This document shows positions 1-43,400 of a stretch of DNA of 44,174 nucleotides, piece after piece; position 1 is the first letter of the stretch; the number at the start of each line of letters is the position of its first letter. The stretch comes from a virus (taxonomy: Duplodnaviria > Heunggongvirae > Uroviricota > Caudoviricetes), in the IMG/VR virus record IMGVR_UViG_2706794694_000015. One strand, written 5' to 3'. The notes under the pieces are model-generated. The model ran no database searches. It saw nothing but the letters and a program-made list of their open reading frames with translations, and had not been told where the DNA came from. The position numbers were made by a program, and so were the translations under genes.

Positions 1-1236
1 CTACGATAACCGCGCATTCAACATGGCTACCTGTTCGTCGTTCATGTCATCAATCCACATACCGTAAATTTCATACACCATCTGCGCAGTTTCATGCCCC
101 ATCTGGCTGGCTATAAACGCCGGGTTCGCTCCTGCCGTCAACAGCCAGCAGGCAAAAGTATGCCGCGTATGGTACGGATTACGGCGGCGAATACCAGCAC
201 GTTTTACTGCTGCATTCCATCTCGCACCCAAACTGCTTACCGAGTAATAAGGTTTCTGTTTTCCGTTACACACTCTGGGCATGAAAACAAAATGCAGTTT
301 TTGCTTTTCGGTTCTGCCGTACTCCCGATGATAAAAAGTGATTTCGCTTTTGCGATGATGCCCGGTCAGTTTGTATTGCTCCTTCAGTGCTTCAAGAGCA
401 GGCTGCAGTAGTGTTACCGTCCGGATCCCCGCATTTGTTTTTGGGGGACCGAACATATCCAGTATCGTCAGGTTTCTTCTGACATTCACAACTCCCTTCT
501 CGAAATCCACATCCTCCCACGCCAGAGCAGCCAGTTCCCCGTGACGAAGCCCGGAGTATACGGCAAATTTCCACAAGTTCTGGCTCTGTCCTTTTTCACT
601 TTCCATTAATGCATTGAATTCTGTTTTAGATAACGGGTCAGGCTTTATTCTGTTTCTCTGTAATTTCTTTACTCCTTCAAATGGTTTGGTTGATATAAAT
701 CCCGACTGATACGCAAAACGTAACAACGAACAGAGCAGGGCGATATAGTTATCAACTGTGCGCACGGTTCTTCCTTTTTTGTTGGATCTTGGATTATCCA
801 GGTAAAGCGTTTCTCCATGCAGCAGTTCATTCCGGTAGTTTAAGATATCGCTATAACGAATATGCGATATCGGAGTACTCTCACAAATTATTATCCTGAG
901 TGTTTTTAATTGTGATTTCGTTTTCTTCATTGTGTTTGTTGTTAACTCTGTTTCTTTAATTTTTGTCCAGATATCACAAAGCTCCCCGAACGTTTTTATG
1001 ACCCTCGTTGTCACCATTTTTGCCCCAGTGCTGGACTGGGGAAAACGTCTTAAATACTCAAACTCACCGGAATTGATTTCATGAACTATCAACGCTCTTA
1101 AATTCCCGGCTTTTTTAATGTTACTGTTAGTAACCTCCCAGCCTTTCAATGTTTCCCGACATCGTTTTCCTCGAAACATGAACCAGATGCGAATGTATTT
1201 ACCTCGAATCTCGACACCTGTTGGTAATTTAGACAT
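1..1236 (-). CDS. intR: Prophage integrase, tyrosine recombinase (Rac IntR-like), 411 aa
   Basis: Full-length ORF; N-terminus MSKLPTGVEIRGKYIRIWF matches my recollection of Rac IntR; C-terminal HTRHT...YEIYG catalytic His/Arg/Tyr signature; lies next to an excisionase gene. Confidence 0.93.
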   Translation of the reverse strand: MSKLPTGVEIRGKYIRIWFMFRGKRCRETLKGWEVTNSNIKKAGNLRALIVHEINSGEFEYLRRFPQSSTGAKMVTTRVIKTFGELCDIWTKIKETELTTNTMKKTKSQLKTLRIIICESTPISHIRYSDILNYRNELLHGETLYLDNPRSNKKGRTVRTVDNYIALLCSLLRFAYQSGFISTKPFEGVKKLQRNRIKPDPLSKTEFNALMESEKGQSQNLWKFAVYSGLRHGELAALAWEDVDFEKGVVNVRRNLTILDMFGPPKTNAGIRTVTLLQPALEALKEQYKLTGHHRKSEITFYHREYGRTEKQKLHFVFMPRVCNGKQKPYYSVSSLGARWNAAVKRAGIRRRNPYHTRHTFACWLLTAGANPAFIASQMGHETAQMVYEIYGMWIDDMNDEQVAMLNARLS

Positions 1237-6670: not shown

Positions 6671-7159
6671 ATGTTGGATGTATTTACTCCATTGTTGAAA
6701 CTTTTTGCTAACGAGCCACTCGAAATACTTATGTATACGATTATCATTTTTGGTCTCACTCTCTGGCTGATACCGAAAGAGTTTACTGTCGCATTCAATG
6801 CTTATACTGAAATACCTTGGCTCTTTCAGATTATCGTTTTTGCCTTTTCTTTCGTGGTCGCCATTTCCTTCTCAAGATTGCGAGCACATATTCAAAAGCA
6901 TTATTCATTACTACCAGAGCAACGAGTATTGCTTCGTTTATCTGAGAAAGAAATCGCTGTATTTAAAGATTTCCTTAAAACAGGAAATCTTATTATCACT
7001 TCTCCTTGCCGTAACCCGGTTATGAAAAAATTAGAACGGAAGGGCATCATTCAACATCAGAGTGATAGCGCAAACTGTTCTTATTATCTCGTCACCGAAA
7101 AATACTCCCATTTTATGAAGTTATTCTGGAACAGCAGGAGTAGACGTTTTAATCGTTAG
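6671..7159 (+). CDS. sieB: SieB superinfection exclusion protein, 162 aa from MLDVFTPLLKLF...
   Basis: Track ORF 6548..7159; internal ATG at 6671 gives recalled SieB; hydrophobic N-terminal half. Confidence 0.88.
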   Translation: MLDVFTPLLKLFANEPLEILMYTIIIFGLTLWLIPKEFTVAFNAYTEIPWLFQIIVFAFSFVVAISFSRLRAHIQKHYSLLPEQRVLLRLSEKEIAVFKDFLKTGNLIITSPCRNPVMKKLERKGIIQHQSDSANCSYYLVTEKYSHFMKLFWNSRSRRFNR

Positions 7160-7311
7160 CTTACTGTGTGCTTCTCCAACCATCGGCGCGCACCAGTTTC
7201 GGTTTTAAATGTTTTGCTTTTGGTATACGTCATGGCAGTGAACGTTCCATCCTGGTTGGGGAACACGCCGCACACCAGGGATTCGTTGTTGCCGAGGTCG
7301 ATTTTTTGCAT
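7156..7311 (-). CDS. ydaF: YdaF-like small protein, 51 aa (MQKIDLGNNESLVCGVFPNQDGTFTAMTYTKSKTFKTETGARRWLEKHTVS)
   Basis: Hand translation; convergent with and overlapping the sieB stop; not in track (under 60 aa). Confidence 0.7.
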   Translation of the reverse strand: MQKIDLGNNESLVCGVFPNQDGTFTAMTYTKSKTFKTETGARRWLEKHTVS

Positions 7312-7321
7312 TTTGCGAATC

Positions 7322-7456
7322 TCACATCTTGTTGCTGTGTATAGCGACTTCTGCCTGCCAGAGATCCCAGTCGTTGCTGCGTAAAGCCTGCACAGCCTGG
7401 TTGTAAGTGATACCGCAACAATCCATCAAATACTGAACTACTTCGTAATGCACCAT
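7322..7456 (-). CDS. ydaG: YdaG-like small protein, 44 aa (MVHYEVVQYLMDCCGITYNQAVQALRSNDWDLWQAEVAIHSNKM)
   Basis: Within track ORF 7322..7504; internal start matches recalled YdaG. Confidence 0.7.
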   Translation of the reverse strand: MVHYEVVQYLMDCCGITYNQAVQALRSNDWDLWQAEVAIHSNKM

Positions 7457-7624
7457 CTTATCTCTCCCCTTAACGCCGGGTGGCGGAACTGAAACCTGCT
7501 GCACTGCAAAATCTGAACCCTGCCGTCATGTTCATACGCCTCGGGCTGGCTACTTAACCCCTGACCACTGCCTGGTAACTCGAAGTATTGCCCTGCGTTC
7601 TGTGGGGCGGGGTGGGTTGGTAGG

Positions 7625-7672
7625 TATATAATGTACTTTGTGTTCATTGATGTAAAGTACTATAAGTACATT
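7625..7672. promoter_or_regulatory. Operator-like nested inverted repeats built on ATGTACT/AGTACAT half-sites with an adjacent TATATA element, downstream of racR and upstream of the leftward ydaG-kilR-recET genes
   Basis: ATGTACTT (7631..7638) is the reverse complement of AAGTACAT (7664..7671); GTACTTT (7633..7639) pairs with AAAGTAC (7654..7660). Confidence 0.4.
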
Positions 7673-7746
7673 TTGTGTGTAAAAAAATGAGATGGGATAA
7701 AGTGAAGCACAAACCCGGAGGGGGACGCTACCGGATTTATGCTGGT

Positions 7747-8184
7747 TTAAGAGGCTTTTTGTTTTTTCTTTCGTGCTAGCTCTTCGTAAATTGCATTGTA
7801 CTTCTGTTTTTTCTCCTCAAGAGTTTTTAAAAGTTCATCTGTCTCACTGTCAGGGAGCTCGTCCAGAAGGTCAATGATGATTTTTTGTCTTGGATTTAAC
7901 TCCTGATAGAAACGTACCTGTCCACTTTCTTCTGTATCCTCTCCCAAAAGATAGGTTGGTGTTGTTCCAATGAGTGTTGCTAATTCCCTTAATTTCTCTC
8001 GGCGAGGAATTGTTTCGCCATTAAACCATTTGCTAACCGCTTTTGGTGTTAATTTCATTCGACGGGCAATTTCTGCCTGCCTTCCATGTTGTTCATAACC
8101 AGCGTTTTCACAGGCTAGCGCAAGCCTACTGGCGAACTCTTTACGCGCTTTATCTTCATGAACCATAAGTTCAATGATATTCAC
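7747..8184 (-). CDS. racR: Prophage repressor RacR-like (XRE/cI-type HTH), up to 145 aa; start uncertain (GTG at 8184 or downstream ATG)
   Basis: HTH segment GRQAEIARRMKLTPKAVSKWFNGETIP; divergent from the ydaS/ydaT pair as in Rac. Confidence 0.8.
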   Translation of the reverse strand: MNIIELMVHEDKARKEFASRLALACENAGYEQHGRQAEIARRMKLTPKAVSKWFNGETIPRREKLRELATLIGTTPTYLLGEDTEESGQVRFYQELNPRQKIIIDLLDELPDSETDELLKTLEEKKQKYNAIYEELARKKKQKAS

Positions 8185-8245
8185 TCTTGAATGTACTGTC
8201 AGTTCTGTTATAGCATGTACTCAAAGTTCACATTGTGAGGGTGAT
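8185..8245. promoter_or_regulatory. racR / ydaS divergent switch region with two direct ATGTACT copies
   Basis: ATGTACT at 8191..8197 and 8215..8221 in the 61-bp gap between divergent repressor-like genes; same heptamer as the repeats at 7631..7671. Confidence 0.4.
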
Positions 8246-8500
8246 ATGAACCAGAAAACACTTGAAGATGTAATCAAAACTGTTCGCGTTTCTGTTGTGG
8301 CCGACGTTTGTGGTGTCAGCCAAAGAGCAATCTACAAATGGATGGATAACGGAAAATTGCCTCGCACAGAATATACCGGCGAAACAAATTACGCTGAAAA
8401 AATCGCTCATGCATCAAACGGATTATTTTCTGCTGATGTAATTTTAACTATTGGCAGAAATAAAACTACTACGAAAAAGCTGATGGGAGTTGATTCATGA
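8246..8500 (+). CDS. ydaS: YdaS-like Cro/HTH protein, 84 aa from MNQKTLEDVIKTV...
   Basis: Track ORF 8174..8500; ATG at 8246; divergent from racR; overlaps ydaT start. Confidence 0.8.
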   Translation: MNQKTLEDVIKTVRVSVVADVCGVSQRAIYKWMDNGKLPRTEYTGETNYAEKIAHASNGLFSADVILTIGRNKTTTKKLMGVDS

Positions 8501-8919
8501 AAATCAAGCATGAGCACATCGAGTCAGTGTTGTTAGCCCTGGCAGCCGAAAAAGGGCAGGCATGGGTAGCCAATGCCATTACTGAAGAATATCTGCGCCA
8601 GGGGGGCGGCGAATTGCCCCTGGTACCAGGCAAGGACTGGAATAATCAGCAGAATATCTATCACCGTTGGTTGAAAGGTGAAACGAAAACGCAAAGAGAA
8701 AAAATTCAGAAGCTGATCCCAGCAATTCTGGCAATCCTTCCGCGCGAGCTGCGTCACCGACTCTGCATCTTCGATACCCTGGAACGCCGTGCATTACTGG
8801 CGGCGCAGGAAGCGTTAAGTACGGCAATTGATGCGCATGATGATGCAGTCCAAGCCGTTTACCGGAAAGCGCATTTCAGCGGCGGCGGGTCTTCCGACGA
8901 TTCTGTCATTGTTCATTAA
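8497..8919 (+). CDS. ydaT: YdaT-like protein, 140 aa
   Basis: 140-aa ORF (MKIKHEHIESVLLALAAEKGQAW...) in Rac synteny after ydaS. Confidence 0.85.
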   Translation: MKIKHEHIESVLLALAAEKGQAWVANAITEEYLRQGGGELPLVPGKDWNNQQNIYHRWLKGETKTQREKIQKLIPAILAILPRELRHRLCIFDTLERRALLAAQEALSTAIDAHDDAVQAVYRKAHFSGGGSSDDSVIVH

Positions 8920-10236: not shown

Positions 10237-10414
10237 NNNNNNNNNNNNNNNNNNNNNNNNNNNNNNNNNNNNNNNNNNNNNNNNNNNNNNNNNNNNNNNN
10301 NNNNNNNNNNNNNNNNNNNNNNNNNNNNNNNNNNNNNNNNNNNNNNNNNNNNNNNNNNNNNNNNNNNNNNNNNNNNNNNNNNNNNNNNNNNNNNNNNNNN
10401 NNNNNNNNNNNNNN
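10237..10414. other. N-run (178 nt): masked sequence or assembly gap
   Basis: Uninterrupted n characters. Confidence 1.
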
Positions 10415-10438: not shown

Positions 10439-11200
10439 ATGGAGACTGTTTTTGACGCACTGAAAGCAATGGGAAAAGCCACATCCATAGAACTTGCTGC
10501 GCGACTTGATATCAGTCGTGAAGAAGTGCTGAACGAACTATGGGAACTGAAAAAAGCTGGTTTCGTTGATAAAAGCGCGTACACCTGGCGTGTGGCTGAT
10601 AACAACGTTCAGCAGGAACAGCCAATGCAGGCAGAACTGCCGGAAGAAACCACCACGGCAACTGTAGTGAAAATCTCAGAGTGCGATTTAACCGCGACGA
10701 TTGAACAACGCGGACCACAAACGGCGGATGAACTGGCTACGCTGTTCGGTACAACATCCCGCAAAGTTGCTTCAACGCTGGCAATGGCAATCAGCAAAGG
10801 ACGCCTGATTCGCGTAAACCAGAACAGTAAATTTCGTTACTGCATGCCGGGCGATAATTTACCAGCAGAGCCGAAAGCTGCATCGGTAGCGGAAACTGAT
10901 GGTAAAGCCTTTCCTCAGCCAGCCGGTGTTGCGTTACCAGTACAGGAAGCGGCAACACAGGAAGATATTAAAACAGAAACTGTGGCGGACATTGTGCAGT
11001 CGCTGCCATCGTTTACTGAAACGCAAGCGGATGACCTAGTTTTACCATCGCTGCATATGGCAAACCGCGAACTGCGTCGGGCGAAAAATCATGTCCAGAA
11101 GTGGGAGCGAGTCTGCGCCGCGCTGCGGGAGCTGAACAAGCACCGGGATATTGTCCGACAGATTGTCGATTCCTCCAGTCGTATTGTGTCGGAAAAGTGA
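10439..11200 (+). CDS. Conserved phage hypothetical protein, 253 aa (possibly an intact YdaW-like protein)
   Basis: ATG at 10439 behind a GGGAGG RBS; [31 protein letters not shown] N-terminus suggests a winged helix; identity with ydaW is a guess from synteny. Confidence 0.6.
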
Positions 11201-11215
11201 TTGCCGGAGGCGCTT

Positions 11216-11632
11216 ATGGCAAAAGTTTTTACACAGGAAGAGCGTGAAAAAATTAAGGAGCAGGTTGTTGAGTTGGTACGCCAGAGTGGGCGCGAGACGT
11301 TAAGGCAACTGGAGGCCAAGACAGGTGCGACAAGATATCTGATGAGCATTCTTGCCAGAGAGTTGGTTGCCAGTGGCGATGTATACAACTCTGGCTATGG
11401 GTTATTCCCGTCTGAACAGGCTCGTAAGGATTGGAAAAACGCCCGCAAAAAACTATCCAGGGCAAAGGTGAAAAAAACGGTTGTGGTTGATCCTGACCTT
11501 ATCTGGTCATTACCAGACGGAGAAATACGCCGCTATGACAGGCGTCAGAACATAATCTGTCGCGAGTGCCGGAAGAGTGAAGTTATGAAACGTGTACTGG
11601 CATTTTATCAAGGAAATCTTCGGTATTTATAG
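11216..11632 (+). CDS. Hypothetical protein, 138 aa from MAKVFTQEEREKIK...
   Basis: Track ORF 11201..11632; ATG at 11216 preceded by GGAGG; composition like the phage core. Confidence 0.55.
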   Translation: MAKVFTQEEREKIKEQVVELVRQSGRETLRQLEAKTGATRYLMSILARELVASGDVYNSGYGLFPSEQARKDWKNARKKLSRAKVKKTVVVDPDLIWSLPDGEIRRYDRRQNIICRECRKSEVMKRVLAFYQGNLRYL

Positions 11633-11788
11633 ACGTTACTAGATCAAAGAGCATTAGTTCATATGTAAATTGACATTTTTCTGGCACAGGGGAGAGCTAG
11701 CGTGGTTGTCCGCTTTGTGCCAATAGCGGACATTGCTGGCTCATGGTATGTTAGTTTAAGGAGGCAGGTTATGCCCTGTATTTCGCTG

Positions 11789-11797
11789 TGGTATAAT
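11789..11797 (+). promoter_or_regulatory. Candidate extended -10 promoter element (TGgTATAAT) for the cargo operon
   Basis: TGGTATAAT seen directly, about 35 nt upstream of the cargo GTG start; a TTGACA hexamer lies further upstream at 11670..11675. Confidence 0.4.
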
Positions 11798-11830
11798 AGT
11801 TGCGCAATTGATACAAGGGAGCGTTACATC

Positions 11831-12793
11831 GTGAAAATTGTTTTCGAGGTTAATGGAAAGAAAGTTCCACTAAAATCTTTAAAATACATAAGCAAAAAAG
11901 ATCAACTCGAAGTAATGAAAAACTGGTTCTTTGAAAACTTTGAAGATCCGGCAAATGCTTGTCCGTATGAAAGTAGAGAAGGTGGCTATGCTTACATATA
12001 TGGCGGGCCGTATGATGCGAGCGAAGAACTACAATCCATCTTCGGTCAATATGTTAAATCTGAGTATATTGAGGAATTAGTAGATGAATTACAAACACAA
12101 TGTTTTGACTGGTCTGGAAACTCAAATAATATAGATGATTGGTACGATGATGATATCTACGACGCTGTAACGTCTTCCGGTAATCCGTATTTAAAATTCA
12201 TTGATAATATCGATAAAATAAAAAAACTTGCAAAAGATAAAACTGAACAACAGCAAAAAAACCACTTGCTTAGTTTGCTCTACACGAATGTTATTACAGC
12301 TTTGGAAACGCTTTATGTTGAGCTATTCATTAATTCTATAGAGAAAGATGATGTCTACATAGCCAATTGTATAGAAAAAGGTAAGACTGAATTTAAAGTA
12401 AGCAAAGATATTGCTGCGTTGCCTTTCAAGGGTGAACCCATCGAGAAAATTAGGGGAGAGCTAATCAGGTCAATCAAGGAACACTTGATCAGTGCAAGCT
12501 GGCATAGCACTAAAAAGGTAATCGACCGCTATGAAGCTACATTCGATATAAAAGTACAAAAAGACTGTCCGATAGAAGCTATTGAATTGGCAACCCTCAA
12601 TCGAAATCACTTAGTGCATCGTGGTGGAAAGGATAAAGAAGGGAACCTCGTAGTGATTACAGACCAGGATCTTGAAACGCTGATTGAAAATGCATCGAAC
12701 CTGGCAATTATGCTCTACAACAGTTTAAATGTAGCAACGAATAAAACCACCATTTTGCAACCAGATGACAAACCGTTCATTCATGAATTTTAA
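11831..12793 (+). CDS. Cargo gene A: unknown protein, 320 aa, AT-rich; C-terminal helical region with R-x4-H (HEPN-like?) motif
   Basis: Long ORF (track 11702..12793); GTG at 11831 preceded by AAGGGAG at 9-nt spacing; LNRNHLVHRGG encoded at 12599..12631. Confidence 0.7.
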   Translation: MKIVFEVNGKKVPLKSLKYISKKDQLEVMKNWFFENFEDPANACPYESREGGYAYIYGGPYDASEELQSIFGQYVKSEYIEELVDELQTQCFDWSGNSNNIDDWYDDDIYDAVTSSGNPYLKFIDNIDKIKKLAKDKTEQQQKNHLLSLLYTNVITALETLYVELFINSIEKDDVYIANCIEKGKTEFKVSKDIAALPFKGEPIEKIRGELIRSIKEHLISASWHSTKKVIDRYEATFDIKVQKDCPIEAIELATLNRNHLVHRGGKDKEGNLVVITDQDLETLIENASNLAIMLYNSLNVATNKTTILQPDDKPFIHEF

Positions 12794-12808
12794 TAGCGCA
12801 GGTCATAC

Positions 12809-13810
12809 ATGGATATTCGCACACGAAAGACAAAATTTTTAGAGTCGTTAGATTCAACTGAAGTGATACGCAAAGCAGTAAGTCTCGCTATAGATTGCAT
12901 TATTGATAATCATAATAGTAATGAAGATACCCCCTTAGTTATTACCAGCTATGATGATCTCTGTAGAATCCAGGTGCTAAATTATGTACAGGAGTTTTGC
13001 GAAGCTGCATTCCCTGATATGGATGAATATTACTTTAGTCCTAACATACTTCGCATCAACGGCAAGACTAGTGAAGAAGCTTGTATTAACTTAATTAAAC
13101 TCTTAAGAAGTACAAAAGGCATGCTATTCTGGTCCGATGCCCCATCGTGGTTCGCTAGCCTCCCCGACGGATTATTCCATGTTGTTAACATTGATCAAAA
13201 AATCGTTACTCGCGGCCTTAATAAGAAAAACTCTAAGCCGACAATAATCAATAAAGATTACAGTGTAGATACACTACTATCAGAGCTATTTTTGAATGGC
13301 GCACACATGGAGCAACCCAACGTACACAACGTTTCTGAGGGAAACATGAAGTTCTATGATGAATGCCATGCTGGATTAATCAGACCAATACCCGCTCCAA
13401 TAGGCGCGTCATACGATGAAGAGATCACAATTAATTCTCCAGATTGGCAAAAGCTCGCGTGTGTAGCTTTACGCCGCTATCAGTCGAAGGAATGTCATGA
13501 CGGAATGCAATGGGATACAACCGATCATGGTTGGACTGATGTAATCGCGTATCCATTCGTCGAAGAAATACAATCAATGGATAATAGTGGTTATCGACAA
13601 TGTTTAGTTGGGCTGGTCACAATAAACAATTCAAATGCAAATTCTCCGTACCTATCTACCGTTTGGATACATCCATTTTATCGCAGGAGAGGGTTATTAA
13701 GTAAGTTATGGCCAAAATTACAAGAGTTATATGGAAGTAACTTCGAAATTGAGCGACCTAATGAAAATATGAAAGCATTTCTGAAAAGTGCGAAACACGC
13801 AGATTACTAA
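12809..13810 (+). CDS. Cargo gene B: unknown protein, 333 aa, AT-rich; C-terminal segment resembles a GNAT acyltransferase core
   Basis: Full ORF 16 nt downstream of gene A; C-terminal VWIHPFYRRRGLLSKLW...NENMKAFLKSAKH resembles GNAT motifs A/B. Confidence 0.7.
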   Translation: MDIRTRKTKFLESLDSTEVIRKAVSLAIDCIIDNHNSNEDTPLVITSYDDLCRIQVLNYVQEFCEAAFPDMDEYYFSPNILRINGKTSEEACINLIKLLRSTKGMLFWSDAPSWFASLPDGLFHVVNIDQKIVTRGLNKKNSKPTIINKDYSVDTLLSELFLNGAHMEQPNVHNVSEGNMKFYDECHAGLIRPIPAPIGASYDEEITINSPDWQKLACVALRRYQSKECHDGMQWDTTDHGWTDVIAYPFVEEIQSMDNSGYRQCLVGLVTINNSNANSPYLSTVWIHPFYRRRGLLSKLWPKLQELYGSNFEIERPNENMKAFLKSAKHADY

Positions 13811-14430
13811 TTTATGAATCAGTCTGTGGAGTTAGGGTTGGTGTGAACAAGTAGGGTAAGAGCCTCAACGTGATGCTATGCCGACCTGCTCCCTGAGAAT
13901 TCACACAGAAGGCTGCTAGCAATGTCTGCAGATCGCTCAAAGCGGACTAAAATGTTGGCTTGTTTCTGACTTAGAGCATTTAAGGAAGTGCTGGTGGTGA
14001 CTGGTTGTTGTGTTCCATTTCTACAGAATAAAATCACAGAAACTATACCCAATAGTTGTATTGAATCACTGACGAGACAGCCTCATATTTATCAGGACTG
14101 GTGTGCGTCTAATACAGGGGGTTGTCGTGCTGGTTCTCAAATGTGCGCTGGCTATTGCGGCTGTAATGGCAATTTATTGTCTTGCTGTTGTTCTTATGGA
14201 GCGGCTTTCTGATTGATTACATACTGGCTAGAAAAAAGGTGTTACCTTGGTTTATCTTTGTCCGGCAAGGTGCGCTCATTAATCTTAAGTAAATTTATTG
14301 CTCAAGTATTCAGATTACTTCTTATGGTTGAAGTCTCCTGTCAATGTAGAACCAATATATTTACAAAAATGAGACCCGTCGGGGATAGCCCTGCCGGGTC
14401 TGACTGTTAAAGCATTTTTAATATGATCAT

Positions 14431-14769
14431 CTATTTTTTGGTGCTATAGACTTTTTCGCCCGAAAAGTCTGGAGCGACCCAAAAGTTAATATTAAACTGA
14501 GCATCATCGCTTAGTTCAACACGGTGCCAGTATTGTGGTGGGCTTGTTGCAAAAGCGCCAGCATTAATGACTACTTTTATCTCCGGTTCAGTAGCATTCT
14601 CATCAGTAAAACCATAATATGTTACAGTGCCTTCCATTACGCACAACTGCCCAAAAACACCTGCTGCTGTATTATGATGTGTTAATAACGCTGAAGGTAC
14701 GTTCTCTTTTGTGAAGAACGGAGTTGAGCGTTTGATTACCCAATCTTTAGGAATTCTCTTGTGTGTCAT
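14431..14769 (-). CDS. YeaR-like DUF1971 protein, 112 aa from MTHKRIPKDW...
   Basis: Track ORF 14431..14793; internal ATG preceded by GGAGGAGGTGG RBS; resembles recalled E. coli YeaR. Confidence 0.65.
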   Translation of the reverse strand: MTHKRIPKDWVIKRSTPFFTKENVPSALLTHHNTAAGVFGQLCVMEGTVTYYGFTDENATEPEIKVVINAGAFATSPPQYWHRVELSDDAQFNINFWVAPDFSGEKVYSTKK

Positions 14770-15582
14770 AACCACCTCCTCCAAAACATGCATTAAAAAT
14801 GCATCTTTTGGAGGGTTATGTCAAGCTGTTATGAAACACATAATTGATATGTTGATTAGAGGAGAAGATAGAATAAATATGGTTGTTTTTCGTATAACTA
14901 TTTGTTTTACTTTTAGTTTATGCATTCTGTGTGTTAGGAATAAGTTATTAAAGTTTAATCAAAAAATCTCGATGTAGTCCACATAGATTACTGTTACTGA
15001 ACCTTATTGTGTGTATTAGTTGTGTTCTGAAATTTCAGCTTAATTATTTATGATGTATTTTTTAACGATAAATATTTTCCCAGGATACCTTTACTGTGTA
15101 TATAAATAAATTATATACGCATAAATAATGTAAAGGCGTCCTTTTAGATATATCTTATCAAATGTTAATGACTTGAGTGGGAAATATGATTCCAGCAACT
15201 TATCATGTGGCTACTTTATAAAAATAATGCCCATATAAAACAACAAGCGAAAAGGATTACGGATAAAAAAGGAGCGAGATGTGCGAACTTGTTATTTTCC
15301 ATGTTTAACCACCTTAAATAATTGATGATGACGGGATGATTGCATCTGTAATGCTTTTATTGAAATGTTATGATAAAAAAGAACTTTTGCATAACATTAA
15401 AATGTAATTTATCTAATCGTTTTTAATAATAAGTGTCGTATTTCTATCCTTGTACCAGCTATTTGATATGTAGTGTTTGTTCATGCTATGTGGGGCTTTA
15501 CACCATAGCCAGTTTATTTATACTTTATTCGTCAGCCTGAACAACTGGCATCTGCTGCGCTGCGCCATCGAGAGATTGAGAA

Positions 15583-16182
15583 ATGGCGCATATACAACTG
15601 GTCAAACAAACCTCTTCTGGTTTACTTCTCCCGGCGACGCCGGAGAGTTGCGATTTTCTGCATCAAATCAAAATAGGTGAGTGGATACACGCAGACTTTA
15701 AGCGTGTGCGTAACTACGCATTCCACAAGCGTTTTTTCAAACTCCTGCAACTGGGATTCGATTACTGGACTCCGGTCGGTGGGGCGATCACGCCTCGCGA
15801 ACGAGAACTGCTGTCTGGTTTCGTTGATTACCTGTGCGAATCAGTTGGTCGGGAACACACGCCAGCCCTGAGTGATGCCGCAGAGCAATACCTTAACACC
15901 GTTGCGACTCGTAGAACCCGGGATACGGCGTTGCTAAAGTCGTTTGAGGCTTTCCGCGAGTGGGTAACCATTCAGGCCGGATTTTACACCGAGCATATTT
16001 ATCCGGACGGTAGCCGTGGGCGTCGGGCAAAATCCATCGCTTTTGCGAATATGGACGAAGTCGAGTTTCAGCAGGTTTATAAATCTGTACTGAATGTGCT
16101 GTGGAACTGGATTCTGTTCCGTAAATTCTCCTCTCAGGAGGAAGTTGAAAATGTGGCCGCACAACTACTGGAGTTTGCGTAA
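15583..16182 (+). CDS. Conserved lambdoid nin-region protein, 199 aa (recalled as DUF1367-like)
   Basis: Full ORF with core-like composition; start/stop coupled to the next gene; family name from memory only. Confidence 0.6.
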   Translation: MAHIQLVKQTSSGLLLPATPESCDFLHQIKIGEWIHADFKRVRNYAFHKRFFKLLQLGFDYWTPVGGAITPRERELLSGFVDYLCESVGREHTPALSDAAEQYLNTVATRRTRDTALLKSFEAFREWVTIQAGFYTEHIYPDGSRGRRAKSIAFANMDEVEFQQVYKSVLNVLWNWILFRKFSSQEEVENVAAQLLEFA

Positions 16183-19497: not shown

Positions 19498-20018
19498 TGC
19501 CTCCATCATTACGAAAAGTCGTTGCTGCTGCTATTGGTGGCGGAGCAATTGCTATAGCATCAGTGTTAATCACTGGCCCAAGTGGTAACGATGGTCTGGA
19601 AGGTGTCAGCTACATACCATACAAAGATATTGTTGGTGTATGGACTGTATGTCACGGGCATACAGGAAAAGACATCATGCTCGGTAAAACGTATACCGAA
19701 GCAGNNNNNNNNNNNNNNNNNNNNNNNNNNNNNNNNNNNNNNNNNNNNNNNNNNNNNNNNNNNNNNNNNNNNNNNNNNNNNNNNNNNNNNNNNNNNNNNN
19801 NNNNNNNNNNNNNNNNNNNNNNNNNNNNNNNNNNNNNNNNNNNNNNNNNNNNNNNNNNNNNNNNNNNNNNNNNNNNNNNNNNNNNNNNNNNNNNNNNNNN
19901 NNNNNNNNNNNNNNNNNNNNNNNNNNNNNNNNNNNNATATGCTGGCGGTAAGCAATGGAAAGGTCTCATGACTCGTCGTGAGATTGAGCGTGAAATCTGT
20001 TTGTGGGGTCAGCAATGA
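19497..20018 (+). CDS. R: SAR endolysin (phage 21 R21-like lysozyme), interrupted by N-run
   Basis: N-terminal signal-anchor-release segment [27 protein letters not shown]...; C-terminus [26 protein letters not shown]; same frame on both sides of the Ns. Confidence 0.85.
19705..19936. other. N-run (232 nt) inside the endolysin gene
   Basis: Uninterrupted n characters. Confidence 1.
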
Positions 20019-38412: not shown

Positions 38413-39110
38413 TGCAGGACATACAACAGGAAACGCTGAATGAATGCATTCGTGCGGAGCAGTCGGCCAGCGTGGTGCTCTGGGAAATCGACCTGACCGA
38501 GGTAGGCGGGGATCGCTACTTTTTCTGCAATGAGCAGAACGAGAAAGGAGAGTCTGTCACCTGGCAGAGTCGGCAGTATCAGGCCTATCCCATTCAGGGG
38601 AGTGGATTTGAGATGAACGGCAAAGGTGCCAGTGCAAGGCCAACGCTGAAAGTCTCTAATCTGCACGGCATGGTCACCGGGATGGCGGAAGACCTGCAGA
38701 GTCTGGTCGGCGGAACGGTGGTCAGGCGTAAGGTTTACGCCCGTTTTCTGGATGCGGTGAACTTCGTCAACGGAAACAGTGACGCCGATCCGGAGCAGGA
38801 GGTGATCAGCCGCTGGCGTATTGAGCAGTGCAGCGAACTGAGCGCGGTCAGTGCCTCCTTTGTACTGTCCACGCCGACGGAAACGGACGGCGCTGTTTTT
38901 CCGGGGCGCATCATGCTTGCTAATACCTGCACCTGGACCTATCGCGGTGATGAGTGCGGTTATCACGGTCCGGCTGTCGCGGATGAATATGACCAGCCAA
39001 CGTCCGATATCACGAAGGATAAATGCAGCAAATGCCTGAGCGGTTGTAAGTTCCGCAATAACGTCGGCAACTTTGGCGGCTTCCTTTCCATTAACAAACT
39101 TTCGCAGTAA
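38412..39110 (+). CDS. L: Minor tail protein L, 232 aa
   Basis: [33 protein letters not shown]... closely matches recalled lambda L. Confidence 0.9.
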   Translation: MQDIQQETLNECIRAEQSASVVLWEIDLTEVGGDRYFFCNEQNEKGESVTWQSRQYQAYPIQGSGFEMNGKGASARPTLKVSNLHGMVTGMAEDLQSLVGGTVVRRKVYARFLDAVNFVNGNSDADPEQEVISRWRIEQCSELSAVSASFVLSTPTETDGAVFPGRIMLANTCTWTYRGDECGYHGPAVADEYDQPTSDITKDKCSKCLSGCKFRNNVGNFGGFLSINKLSQ

Positions 39111-39115
39111 ATCCC

Positions 39116-39859
39116 ATGACACAGACAGAATCAGCGATTCTGGCGCACGCCCGGCGATGTGCGCCAGCGGAGTCGTGCGGCTTCGTGGTGAGAACACCGG
39201 AGGGGGAAAGATATTTTCCCTGCGTGAATATTTCCGGTGAGCCGGAGGAGTATTTCCGGATGGCTCCGGAGGACTGGCTGCAGGCAGAGATGCAGGGTGA
39301 GATTGTGGCGCTGGTCCACAGCCACCCCGGTGGTCTGCCCTGGCTGAGTGAGGCCGACCGGCGGCTGCAGGTGCAGAGTGATTTGTCGTGGTGGCTGGTC
39401 TGCCGCGGGGCGATTCACAAGTTCCGCTGTGTGCCGCATCTCACCGGGCGGCGCTTTGAGCACGGGGTGACGGACTGTTACACGCTGTTCCGGGACGCTT
39501 ACCATCTGGCGGGAATTGAGATGCCAGATTTTCATCGTGAGGACGACTGGTGGCGTAATGGTCAGAATCTCTATCTGGATAATCTGGAGGCTACAGGGCT
39601 GTATCAGGTGCCGTTGTCAACGGCGCAGCCGGGCGATGTGCTGCTGTGCTGTTTTGGTTCATCGGTGCCGAATCATGCCGCCATTTACTGTGGTGACGGC
39701 GAGCTGCTGCACCATATTCCTGAACAACTGAGCAAACGAGAGAGGTACACCGACAAATGGCAGCGACGCACACACTCCCTCTGGCGTCACCGGGCATGGC
39801 ACGCATCTGCCTTTACGGGGATTTGCAGCGATTTGGCCGCCGCATCGACCTTCGTGTGA
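39116..39859 (+). CDS. K: Tail assembly protein K (JAB/MPN plus NlpC/P60-like), 247 aa
   Basis: MTQTESAILAHARRCAPAESCGFVV... matches recalled lambda K. Confidence 0.88.
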   Translation: MTQTESAILAHARRCAPAESCGFVVRTPEGERYFPCVNISGEPEEYFRMAPEDWLQAEMQGEIVALVHSHPGGLPWLSEADRRLQVQSDLSWWLVCRGAIHKFRCVPHLTGRRFEHGVTDCYTLFRDAYHLAGIEMPDFHREDDWWRNGQNLYLDNLEATGLYQVPLSTAQPGDVLLCCFGSSVPNHAAIYCGDGELLHHIPEQLSKRERYTDKWQRRTHSLWRHRAWHASAFTGICSDLAAASTFV

Positions 39860-40404
39860 AAACGGGGGCCGAAGCCATCCGGGCACTGGCCACACAGCTC
39901 CCGGCGTTTCGTCAGAAACTGAGCGACGGCTGGTATCAGGTGCGCATTGCCGGGCGTGATGCAGGCGAAAATGAATTATCTGCCCGTCTTAATGAACCGC
40001 TGGCAAATGGTGCCGTGATCCACATCGTTCCGCGTCTGGCGGGTGCCAAAAGTGGCGGTGTGTTTCAGGCGGTGCTGGGTGCGGCGCTGATTGCGGTGGC
40101 ATGGTGGAACCCTGTGGGCTGGCTGGGGGCCGCGGCTGTATCGGGTATGTATGCAGCAGGGGCCAGTATGATCCTGGGTGGTGTGGCGCAGATGCTGGCA
40201 CCGAAAGCCAGGACGCCCACGGCAGCCAGTACAGATAACGGCAAACAGAACACGTATTTCTCGTCACTGGATAACATGGTTGCCCAGGGTAATGTTCTGC
40301 CTGTTCTGTACGGGGAAATGCGCGTGGGGTCACGTGTGGTTTCTCAGGAGATCAGCACGGCAGACGAAGGGGATGGTGGTCAGGTTGTGGTGATTGGTCG
40401 CTGA
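39757..40404 (+). CDS. I: Tail assembly protein I, 215 aa
   Basis: MAATHTLPLASPGMARICLYGDLQRFGRRIDLRVKTGAEAIRAL matches recalled lambda I; overlaps K 3' end. Confidence 0.88.
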   Translation: MAATHTLPLASPGMARICLYGDLQRFGRRIDLRVKTGAEAIRALATQLPAFRQKLSDGWYQVRIAGRDAGENELSARLNEPLANGAVIHIVPRLAGAKSGGVFQAVLGAALIAVAWWNPVGWLGAAAVSGMYAAGASMILGGVAQMLAPKARTPTAASTDNGKQNTYFSSLDNMVAQGNVLPVLYGEMRVGSRVVSQEISTADEGDGGQVVVIGR

Positions 40405-40423
40405 TGCAAAATGTTTTATGAGA

Positions 40424-40450
40424 AACCGCCTGCGGGCGGTTTTGTCGTTT
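40424..40450 (+). terminator. Terminator-like hairpin between I and J
   Basis: AACCGCC-TGCG-GGCGGTT followed by TTGTCGTTT. Confidence 0.4.
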
Positions 40451-40464
40451 ATGGAGCGTGAGGA

Positions 40465-43400
40465 ATGGGTAAAGGCAGCAGTAAGGGGCATACCCCGCGC
40501 GAAGCGAAGGACAACCTGAAGTCCACGCAGCTGCTGAGTGTGATCGATGCCATCAGTGAAGGGCCGGTTGAAGGTCCGGTGGATGGATTAAAAAGCGTGC
40601 TGCTGAACAGTACGCCGGTGCTGGACAATGAGGGGAATACCAACATCTCCGGCGTCACGGTGGTGTTCCGGGCAGGTGAGCAGGAGCAGTCACCGCCGGA
40701 GGGGTTTGAATCCTCCGGCTCCGAGACGGTGCTGGGTACGGAAGTGAAATATGACACGCCGATCACCCGGACCATCACGTCGGCAAACATCGACCGTCTG
40801 CGCTTTACCTTCGGTGTACAGGCACTGGTGGAAACCACCTCAAAGGGAGACAGGAATCCGTCGGAAGTCCGCCTGCTGGTTCAGATACAGCGTAACGGTG
40901 GCTGGGTGACGGAAAAAGACATCACCATTAAGGGCAAAACCACCTCGCAGTATCTGGTCTCGGTGGTGGTGGATAACCTGCCTCCGCGCCCGTTCAGTAT
41001 CCGGATGCGCAGGATGACACCGGACAGCACCACAGACCAGCTGCAGAACAAAACGCTCTGGTCGTCATACACCGAAATCATCGATGTGAAACAGTGCTAC
41101 CCGAACACTGCACTGGTCGGCGTACAGGTGGACTCGGAGCAGTTCGGCAGCCAGCAGGTGAGTCGTAATTATCATCTTCGCGGGCGCATTCTGCAGGTGC
41201 CGTCGAACTATAACCCGCAGACGCGACAATACAGCGGTATCTGGGACGGAACGTTAAAACCAGCATACAGCAACAACATGGCCTGGTGTCTGTGGGATAT
41301 GCTGACCCACCCGCGCTACGGCATGGGGAAACGTCTTGGTGCGGCGGATGTGGATAAATGGGCGCTGTATGTCATCGGCCAGTACTGCGACCAGTCAGTG
41401 CCGGACGGCTTTGGCGGCACGGAGCCGCGCATCACCTGTAATGCGTACCTGACCACACAGCGCAAGGCGTGGGATGTGCTCAGTGATTTCTGCTCGGCGA
41501 TGCGCTGTATGCCGGTATGGAACGGGCAGACGCTGACGTTCGTGCAGGACCGACCATCAGATAAGGTGTGGACCTATAACCGCAGTAATGTGGTGATGCC
41601 GGATGATGGCGCGCCGTTCCGCTACAGCTTCAGCGCCCTGAAAGACCGCCATAATGCCGTTGAGGTGAACTGGATTGACCCGGATAACGGCTGGGAGACG
41701 GCGACAGAGCTTGTGGAGGATACGCAGGCCATTGCCCGTTACGGTCGTAACGTCACGAAGATGGATGCTTTTGGCTGTACCAGCCGGGGGCAGGCACACC
41801 GCGCCGGGCTGTGGCTGATTAAANNNNNNNNNNNNNNNNNNNNNNNNNNNNNNNNNNNNNNNNNNNNNNNNNNNNNNNNNNNNNNNNNNNNNNNNNNNNN
41901 NNNNNNNNNNNNNNNNNNNNNNNNAAACGCAGACCGTGGACTTCAGCGTGGGCGCAGAAGGGCTTCGCCATGTGCCGGGCGATGTCATTGAAATCTGTGA
42001 TGATGACTATGCGGGTATCAGCATCGGCGGGCGCGTGCTGGCGGTAAACAGCCAGACCCGGACGCTGACGCTCGACCGTGAAATCACGCTGCCATCCTCC
42101 GGTACCATGCTGATAAGCCTGGTTGACGGAAGTGGCAATCCGGTCAGCGTGGAGGTTCAGTCCGTCACCGACGGCGTGAAGGTGAAAGTGAGCCGTGTTC
42201 CTGACGGCGTTGCTGAATACAGCGTGTGGGGGCTGAAGCTGCCGACGTTGCGCCAGCGCCTGTTCCGCTGTGTGAGTATCCGTGAGAACGATGACGGCAC
42301 GTATGCCATCACTGCCGTGCAGCATGTACCGGAAAAAGAAGCCATCGTGGATAACGGGGCGCACTTTGACGGCGACCAGAGCGGCACGGTGAATGGTGTC
42401 ACGCCGCCAGCGGTGCAGCACCTGACTGCCGAAGTCACCGCAGACAGCGGGGAATATCAGGTGCTGGCGCGCTGGGACACGCCGAAGGTGGTGAAGGGGG
42501 TGAGCTTTATGCTTCGCCTGACCGTGGCAGCGGATGACGGCAGTGAGCGGCTGGTCAGCACGGCCCGGACGACGGAAACCACATACCGCTTCACGCAACT
42601 GGCGCTGGGACGGTACACGCTGACAGTCCGGGCGGTAAATGCCTGGGGACAGCAGGGCGATCCGGCGTCGGTATCGTTCAGGATTGCCGCACCGGTAGCA
42701 CCGTCGCGGATTGAGCTGACGCCGGGCTATTTTCAGATAACTGCCACGCCGCATCTTGCGGTTTATGATCCGACGGTACAGTTTGAGTTCTGGTTCTCGG
42801 AAACGCGGATTACCGATATCAGGCAGGTTGAAACCACAGCCCGCTACCTTGGCGCGGGGCTGTACTGGATAGCCGCCAGTATCAATATCAAACCGGGCCA
42901 TGATTATTACTTTTATATCCGCAGTGTGAACACCGTTGGCAAATCGGCATTCGTGGAGGCCGTCGGTCGGGCGAGCGATGATGCGGAAGGTTACCTGGAT
43001 TTTTTCAAAGGCAAGATAACCGAATCCCATCTCGGTAAAGAGCTGCTGGAAAAAGTTGATCTGACGGAGGATAACGCCAGCAGACTGGATGAGTTTTCGA
43101 AAGAGTGGAAGGACGCTAACGATAAATGGAATGCGATGTGGGGCGTCAAAATTGAGCAGACCAAAGACGGCAAACATTATGTCGCGGGTATTGGCCTCAG
43201 CATGGAGGACACGGAGGAAGGCAAGCTGAGCCAGTTTCTGGTTGCCGCCAATCGTATCGCGTTTATTGACCCGGCAAACGGGAATGAAACGCCGATGTTT
43301 GTGGCGCAGGGCAACCAGATATTCATGAACGACGTGTTCCTGAAGCGCCTGACAGCCCCCGCCATTACCAGCGGTGGCAGTCCTCCGGTATTTTCCCTGA

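Follow-up and report, generated by a model that had tools for sequence, protein, structure and literature searches.

A two-gene cargo cassette of a Rac prophage corresponding to the published anti-phage system DS-33: a defending HEPN protein and a GNAT-fold neighbour dispensable in the published assays

The cassette and its identity

The DNA considered here is the viral record IMGVR_UViG_2706794694_000015, a stretch of 44,174 nucleotides (nt) that is called the window in its whole length. On its plus strand, in a Rac prophage at ttcA, lies a cassette of two co-directional open reading frames (ORFs), A and B, encoding a HEPN protein and a GNAT-fold protein, respectively (Table 1). A reading made from the letters alone (the sequence-only reading) had located both ORFs correctly and had proposed that they form an undescribed defence, abortive-infection or toxin module. 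The cassette does provide defence; however, it is not undescribed, since it is almost certainly the already published system DS-33, in which the HEPN gene is required. The gap between the ORFs had been given as 16 nt, which is the difference between the coordinates; the true spacer is 15 nt.

DS-33 (working id 'GNAT') was reported in the DefensePredictor study (Science 2026, PMC13092281; preprint of January 2025, bioRxiv 10.1101/2025.01.08.631726). Protein A is identical in 320 of 320 residues to the DS-33A sequence in Table S8 of that study, and protein B agrees with DS-33B (WP_000354965.1) in 332 of 333, the sole difference being proline at position 289 here (P289) and leucine there (L289). 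Both also share a coding span of 1980 nt (6922..8901 in DS-33, 11831..13810 here). The accession of A, WP_014639476.1, is also the one that RefSeq gives to the identical locus in Escherichia coli FORC_081 and S88, and the FORC_081 copy is 100% identical to the locus of the window. Table S6 of the same study lists WP_014639476.1 and WP_000354965.1 as the DS-33 proteins, 'defensive TRUE', under the category 'predicted novel defense gene'. No later literature on DS-33 was found, and neither accession was found in main texts.

Table 1. Features of the cassette and its surroundings (positions in the window; residues where stated)
Feature	Position	Strand	Remarks
Mobile unit	11708..13884	+	promoter/leader, ORF A, ORF B and 74-nt tail; blastn against other genomes
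Extended -10 element TGGTATAAT	11789..11797	+	read from sequence; 34 nt before the GTG
Ribosome-binding site AAGGGAG	11815..11821	+	sequence; 9 nt before the GTG of A
ORF A, DS-33A (WP_014639476.1)	11831..12793	+	320 amino acids, GTG start
HEPN/RES N-terminal domain 1 (NTD1) of A	residues ~1-115
HEPN domain of A	residues ~119-310
HEPN motif R258-N-H-L-V-H263	12602..12619	+	R-x4-H
ORF B, DS-33B (here WP_000354966.1)	12809..13810	+	333 amino acids, ATG start
N-terminal alpha/beta domain of B	residues ~1-200		no detectable relatives
GNAT-fold domain of B	residues ~205-333
GNAT motif-A-like R292-R-R-G295	13682..13693	+	in the beta4-alpha3 loop, following the invariant residues W286, H288 and P289
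DUF1971 (YeaR-type) gene	14431..14793	opposite	Pfam E 2.6e-26

Published phenotypes

In PMC13092281, the tested clone came from a strain of the ECOR collection and was placed, together with the region predicted to hold its own promoter, in E. coli MG1655, where the operon protects 100- to 100,000-fold against T7, T3, Bas67 and Bas26. Table S7 of that work gives log10 protection in two replicates for five retested phages. For the wild-type system the values were 3.8 and 2.6 (T7), 3.3 and 2.4 (T3), 4 and 2.0 (Bas67), 5 and 5.9 (Bas26), and 0.8 and 0.1 (T5). Deletion of the HEPN gene brought protection to between -0.5 and 0.5 on all five phages, and the single substitution R258A to between -0.3 and 0.8. 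After deletion of the GNAT gene the values were 4.8 and 4.3 (T7), 3.3 and 3.3 (T3), 4 and 3.3 (Bas67), 5 and 4.9 (Bas26), and 1.7 and 0.5 (T5). Constructs with A only were viable, as was a construct with B but lacking the HEPN gene.

The cassette is therefore an anti-phage defence system in which A defends and needs its Arg258, and B is dispensable in the published assays. The experiments that the sequence-only reading had called for, namely a native-promoter clone, a phage panel and an R-x4-H mutant, had essentially been carried out in that study, and for the HEPN protein the outcome was the one predicted. The idea of a functional two-gene module did not survive, given that the GNAT gene is dispensable, and nothing supports the suggested role of B as a tRNA-acetylating toxin.

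Protein A

Protein A is read, by way of its family, as an NTD1 joined to a HEPN domain whose R-x4-H motif does not vary. A search for its homologues found 122 proteins, and in the 56 that were aligned R258, H263 and R264 never change, nor do W224-H225 and E159; the NTD1 motif WF..NFEDP..PYES..GGY.YIYGGPYDA is nearly invariant among these relatives. PF18870 (HEPN/RES-NTD1) is matched by 53 of the 56 at E <= 0.01, and PF18735 (RiboL-PSP-HEPN) is matched by 31, with a best E of 7e-11. Protein A also shows the four-helix up-and-down HEPN fold, and its closest solved folds are the HEPN-MNT toxins; searches of the PDB by sequence with the family profiles of A and B gave best E values of 0.02-0.03, to unrelated proteins. 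The likeness to HEPN proteins that had been drawn from the R-x4-H motif is thus supported, the motif being functional since R258A abolishes defence; only the coordinates of the peptide LNRNHLVHRGG had to be corrected, its codons occupying 12596..12628 and so starting 3 nt upstream from the 12599..12631 given before.

The NTD1 behaves as a shuffled module, and in the protein P0117 it lies C-terminal of a PIN_8 nuclease. It also occurs in many alphaproteobacterial proteins of 250-300 residues (loci L058-L081), whose C-terminal regions match no Pfam family; these regions may be further effector partners of NTD1.

Protein B

Protein B has the GNAT alpha/beta fold, as the sequence-only reading had supposed, and acyl transfer is its predicted activity. 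Foldseek searches of the PDB returned GNAT matches only, and the best of them are AAC, SSAT and HAT enzymes rather than toxin GNATs. The protein of the window narrowly misses the Pfam gathering threshold of PF00583 (19.9 bits versus 20.7), and a GNAT match at E <= 0.01 is found in 17 of 43 aligned relatives. In this alignment (A2), R292 and P289 are each present in 43 of 43 sequences and G295 in 35; the place of motif A, with which GNAT proteins bind the pyrophosphate of acetyl-CoA (Q/R-x-x-G-x-G/A), is taken by R292-R-R-G295-L-L, where the last position is not G/A. The coordinates assigned to RRRG by the sequence-only reading were correct. Altogether 34 columns are invariant over the 43 sequences, which go down to 38% identity, and these columns include the N-terminal domain; the N-terminal 200 residues of eight diverse relatives matched nothing in Pfam. 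The B family was found only in Gammaproteobacteria. NCBIfam gave no match to A or B, and the matches in PHROGs were two families of unknown function that hold these same proteins.

The mobile unit and its promoter

The limits of the cassette can be drawn from blastn comparisons on both of its sides. The segment 11706/11708..13884 recurs at 91-97% nt identity in Serratia grimesii (L003) and in metagenome sequences (L096, L097, L101, L103 and L120), and Aeromonas caviae (L085) shares 86% nt identity across 11772..13852. In Rac/Qin-like prophages that lack the cassette, homology to the window stops at 11731-11736 and restarts at 13924. Since the homology of these backbones ends at about 11736 and that of the cassette in other genera begins at about 11708, some 28 nt (11708-11736) are common to both. 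Within this overlap, which could be a recombination junction, positions 11709..11733 form an inverted repeat (GTCCGC...GCGGAC); the corresponding hairpin was no more stable than shuffled sequences (z -1.55).

The extended -10 element that the sequence-only reading had pointed out upstream of A is indeed there; when 14 upstream regions of differing genomic context were aligned, 12 had kept it as TG(G/A)TA(T/C)AAT. The ribosome-binding site and the GTG start are kept alongside it in the alignment of 14 regions, an AGGAG-like block and the GTG being conserved in upstream alignment A3, and all three elements accompany the cassette into the Serratia, Aeromonas and metagenome loci. Because the unit shared in blastn spans the promoter while the cassette-free backbones end at about 11736, the promoter belongs to the cassette, which is predicted to be transcribed from this extended -10 site (a predicted start site). 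The string TGNTATAAT occurs once on each strand of the 44-kb window, and its plus-strand copy is the promoter site. A consensus promoter scan did not report the TGGTATAAT site, since a -35 match is absent there, and promoter-like and terminator-like sites were no more numerous than in shuffled sequences. Longer versions of ORF A, of 340 or 363 residues, are disfavoured because the Serratia locus has a 1-nt indel upstream of the ribosome-binding site.

Two further copies deserve mention. In E. coli MB56 (NZ_CP073936.1, 2539790-2544410; hit H6) the cassette matches in three pieces, being interrupted by an insertion sequence, and two IS3-like ISSen4 transposase genes lie under the match. A 3.3-kb contig labelled Collinsella sp. 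(L002, JAIHTM010000277.1), from an actinobacterial gut metagenome-assembled genome, has the cassette of E. coli with both proteins 100% identical, and it is most likely a binning contaminant and not a case of transfer.

Linkage of A and B across genomes

The comparison of loci agrees with the published dispensability of the GNAT gene. On the side of A, 55 family loci, spread over many phyla (Acidobacteriota, Chloroflexota, cyanobacteria, proteobacteria and further groups), have neither B nor a common neighbour, and homologues as close as 75-76% identity (L004 and L005) are among them. B was found without A at 14 loci, likewise lacking a common neighbour, with B at 56% identity or less and at about 86% in three of them. 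Overall, no conserved partner was found for A across 59 loci or for B across the 14 B-only loci. All the remaining loci in which B is at least 73% identical have the A-B tandem, where the spacer is constant at 14 or 15 nt. These patterns suggest that A and B are autonomous modules, each found mostly alone, which form a fixed tandem only in one enterobacterial/Aeromonas clade; the joining of separate modules in one clade would explain why the GNAT gene is dispensable.

Two of the three B-only loci at about 86% identity (L104 1422-2682 and L151 4817-6075) are natural deletion derivatives, in which the counterpart of 11706..11807 is joined to that of 12730..13884, so that the cassette promoter and B are kept and the HEPN gene is lost; the last ~64 nt of A are fused ahead of B. 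At several of the B-only loci B adjoins genes of defence type, namely T5orf172/DUF4041 with AAA_13, Abi_2, a nuclease resembling GmrSD_C and a primase of the P4 type. In A. caviae (CP025706.1, L085, 4026-8293) a pair with A and B 86% and 79% identical lies on a relaxase-bearing element and directly adjoins a SIR2 gene and a cREC_REC gene; this locus has the look of a small defence island that belongs to no prophage.

Proposed mechanism of A

The explanation that we favour as a whole, in which the cassette is DS-33 carried as prophage cargo, A is a sensor-effector RNase and B is an autonomous neighbour, is held with high confidence; its individual steps for A, i.e., the RNase activity, the sensing and the abortive infection, are each less sure. 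According to this explanation, A would be a self-contained sensor plus effector, kept inactive until some cue from the phage works on its N-terminal domain or by way of it, NTD1 being the putative regulatory or sensing part. The HEPN domains, probably as a dimer with a composite R-x4-H site, would be switched on during infection, and the activated protein would cut RNA (tRNA, mRNA or rRNA) and halt the production of phage, most likely at a cost to the infected cell. Protein B, formed by an N-terminal domain of its own and a GNAT acyltransferase domain, would have joined A in the one enterobacterial/Aeromonas clade, either as a second, independent conflict gene or as a non-essential modulator of A.

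Several observations weigh against this explanation. The protein of the window falls short of the gathering score of PF18870 (22.2 bits versus 27.4; E 1.9e-4, residues 26-92) and shows no Pfam match to PF18735 at E <= 1, so that it is assigned to HEPN from its family, its motif and the fold predicted for it. The case for A as an RNase is solely genetic, coming from the loss of defence in R258A, and the activity is a predicted one. PADLOC 2023 yielded no credible match to A or B, whether each protein was searched by itself or every family member was used, and 5 of the 56 relatives of A weakly touch the model of a DRT-associated HEPN protein. DS-33 is not discussed in the main text of PMC13092281. 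Finally, the tandem is kept down to about 73% identity in B and 84% in A with a fixed spacer, and this would also fit a functional link between the two proteins that is not brought out by plaque assays on 24 phages.

The role of B

The residue that distinguishes B of the window from B of the tested clone bears on the role of this protein. In every one of the 209 complete E. coli genomes with B, the 63 nt surrounding the P289 codon are 100% identical; the window thus has the common allele (WP_000354966.1), whereas the tested clone has the atypical L289. Since P289 is otherwise invariant, B may have been weakened in the construct termed 'wild-type'. Residue 289 is located next to the acetyl-CoA loop.

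Among the specific roles, the one that survives best, which we put forward tentatively, is that B is a second, independent single-gene module behind A, serving in immunity or counter-counter-defence, in which the N-terminal domain would sense a cue and a target in the phage or the host would be acetylated by the GNAT domain. The activity of such a module may have escaped notice because the panel contained no sensitive phages or because the P289L allele is impaired. Family genes stand alone in mobile or defence-island contexts, the two natural deletion derivatives retain the cassette promoter and B without A, the DefensePredictor log-odds for B is positive (1.08, PMC13092281), and the conservation of P289, in the 43 aligned proteins as well as in the codon segment, contrasts with L289 in the tested clone. 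Nevertheless, when the HEPN gene was deleted and B was present, there was no protection on the five retested phages; moreover, no GNAT-based defence system was matched in PADLOC, and the evidence from gene neighbourhoods comes from a handful of loci only.

A broader proposal, somewhat more doubtful, is that B with its natural P289 is a working part of the immunity that the published assays did not see, be it as an acetyltransferase module of its own or as an acetylation switch on the HEPN nuclease. In its first form the 200-residue N-terminal domain would be a sensor in defence or counter-defence; in its second form B would tune the HEPN nuclease and shield the host prophage from its own defence.

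It seems unlikely that B is a non-essential negative regulator of A which acetylates A or its target, or binds A, and which would thereby limit autoimmunity or spare the lytic growth of the prophage itself. Protection after deletion of the GNAT gene was equal or somewhat higher in most comparisons, a rise that is compatible with a mild damping of A by B and also with an artefact of expression. However, there were only two replicates, Bas26 went in the opposite direction in one of them (changes of 0 and -1.0), and the deletion may merely have altered the stability of the mRNA or the expression of A. The A-only constructs were viable, and at most A-family loci neither B nor any other conserved neighbour is present, from which it follows that A needs no such regulator.

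Still less probable is that B is ordinary cargo with no part in conflict, such as a small-molecule or antibiotic N-acetyltransferase, or a decaying hitch-hiker. The invariant columns, which extend into the N-terminal domain, the retention of B where A has been deleted, and the neighbourhoods with mobile elements and defence-type genes argue otherwise, and the conservation and context of B are not the pattern of a decaying gene. Last, an obligate toxin-antitoxin or two-component pair, with a HEPN toxin neutralised by B or a tRNA-acetylating GNAT neutralised by A, was suggested by the co-directional genes with their tiny spacer, by the occurrence of both domain classes in known toxins and by the HEPN-MNT toxins as nearest solved folds to A, but it is largely refuted and very improbable indeed, as the families are mostly found alone and without a conserved partner, B has 333 residues with an extra domain, no RHH/DUF1778 neighbour and non-toxin GNATs as its best GNAT matches, and, in agreement, the deletion data found later show that each gene could be deleted singly, defence surviving the loss of B and vanishing without A.

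Genomic context

The prophage has the gene order intR, xisR, ralR, recT, recE, racC, kilR, sieB, repressors, ydaT and replication genes, followed by a DUF977 gene, the cassette, the DUF1971 gene, DUF1367/DUF1364/DUF1133 and the lysis genes. Of 5426 complete E. coli genomes, 205 have the whole cassette at >=99% identity, its two products being hypothetical proteins in the RefSeq annotation. In about 700 other E. coli genomes, only the first ~95 nt past the DUF977 gene are common with the window, and three of them have unrelated cargo in the slot: hypothetical genes with an integrase fragment (L158), a 'chaperonin' gene with hokD (L159) or a BCCT transporter block (L160). Because cassette-free prophages with the same DUF977 gene and ~95 nt hold unrelated cargo, Rac/Qin-like prophages have, to judge from these comparisons, a variable cargo hotspot downstream of their DUF977 (ydaW-type) gene, and the suggestion that the cassette is acquired cargo in a variable position is borne out.

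The difference in base composition, previously judged by eye, is real when computed. The guanine-plus-cytosine (GC) content is 0.361 in ORF A and 0.391 in ORF B, with 0.467 for the whole window and 0.472 for the DUF977 gene, and at third codon positions (GC3) it is 0.35 and 0.36 in A and B versus 0.48-0.53 in the flanking genes. The YeaR-like gene noticed on the opposite strand is the DUF1971 gene, and between it and the DUF1367 gene lies the AT-rich DNA that had also been reported (14794..15582; 0.79 kb, GC 0.305), where there are short ORFs only and no Rfam match; more generally, Rfam gave no RNA family at E < 0.2 in 11000..16000.

Downstream of the cassette, positions 13924-14231 are about 90% identical to the DNA directly upstream of hokD in the lambdoid prophages L158 and L159. 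The hokD gene itself is missing from the window after this remnant, while an intact hokD follows the cassette in S88 and in plasmid pMS20655A. The remnant contains a cysteine-rich ORF of 74 residues with a GTG start (13988..14212), and Rfam found no hok/sok-type RNA in it. Elsewhere in the window there are three runs of N (10237-10414, 178 bases; 19705-19936, 232; 41824-41924, 101), the first of which falls within the replication-gene region, whose counterpart in FORC_081 is annotated as frameshifted or partial pseudogenes. The GC content of 38500-43000 is 0.58-0.60, well above the 0.47 found elsewhere.

Comparison with known systems

As a discovery the cassette adds little, DS-33 having been named, cloned and mutated already. 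The modest additions made here are the anatomy of the mobile unit with its conserved promoter, the slot as a hotspot, the autonomy of the two genes and the atypical allele of the tested B. Should B turn out to be active, it would add one of the rare cases in which an acetyltransferase takes part in phage defence or controls a HEPN nuclease.

Among known systems, PD-T4-2 (Vassallo et al. 2022) provides E. coli with anti-phage defence as DS-33 does, and it consists of a DUF262 protein and a HEPN protein of the PF18735 RiboL-PSP type, a HEPN subfamily shared with A to judge from the 31 of 56 family members that match PF18735. The HHblits analysis of the authors of PMC13092281 links DS-33A to PD-T4-2_B with a probability of 96.1 over 55% of the protein. 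The two systems differ in that there is no DUF262 gene in or beside the cassette and A carries NTD1 instead, and the PADLOC models of PD-T4-2 have no HMMER match to A or its relatives. As a putative sensor-effector, A would by analogy resemble HepS, Tha, ApeA and PD-T4-2B. HepS, from the Gifsy-1 prophage of Salmonella (PMC13043305), and Tha, from prophages of S. aureus (PMC11087260), have no sequence similarity to A, which has NTD1 N-terminal to its HEPN domain and restricts a different set of phages (T7, T3, Bas26 and Bas67).

The HEPN-MNT (HepT/MntA) systems of type VII differ from the cassette in that A is over twice as large as HepT and bears an additional domain at its N-terminus, and its neighbour has a GNAT fold and is dispensable, not a minimal nucleotidyltransferase. 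A type VII toxin-antitoxin assignment was therefore rejected, given that the A family lacks a conserved neighbour and A works without B. DARNA, a HEPN tRNase described in a preprint, was also set aside, its HEPN domain being N-terminal (R117-x4-H122) in another architecture. Regarding B, the GNAT fold is its sole likeness to the toxins TacT, AtaT, ItaT and KacT, which are single domains of about 170 residues, toxic by themselves and paired with an RHH/DUF1778 antitoxin, whereas B has 333 residues with an extra domain of 200 and no report of toxicity; no neighbour of this antitoxin type was found in the A-B pair loci or in the 14 B-only loci, and toxins of the TacT/AtaT type are not among the closest structural neighbours of B. 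The closest comparison is with the published DS-33 itself, for which PMC13092281 gives the phenotypes and the mutants, and from which the window is set apart by the P289 form of B.

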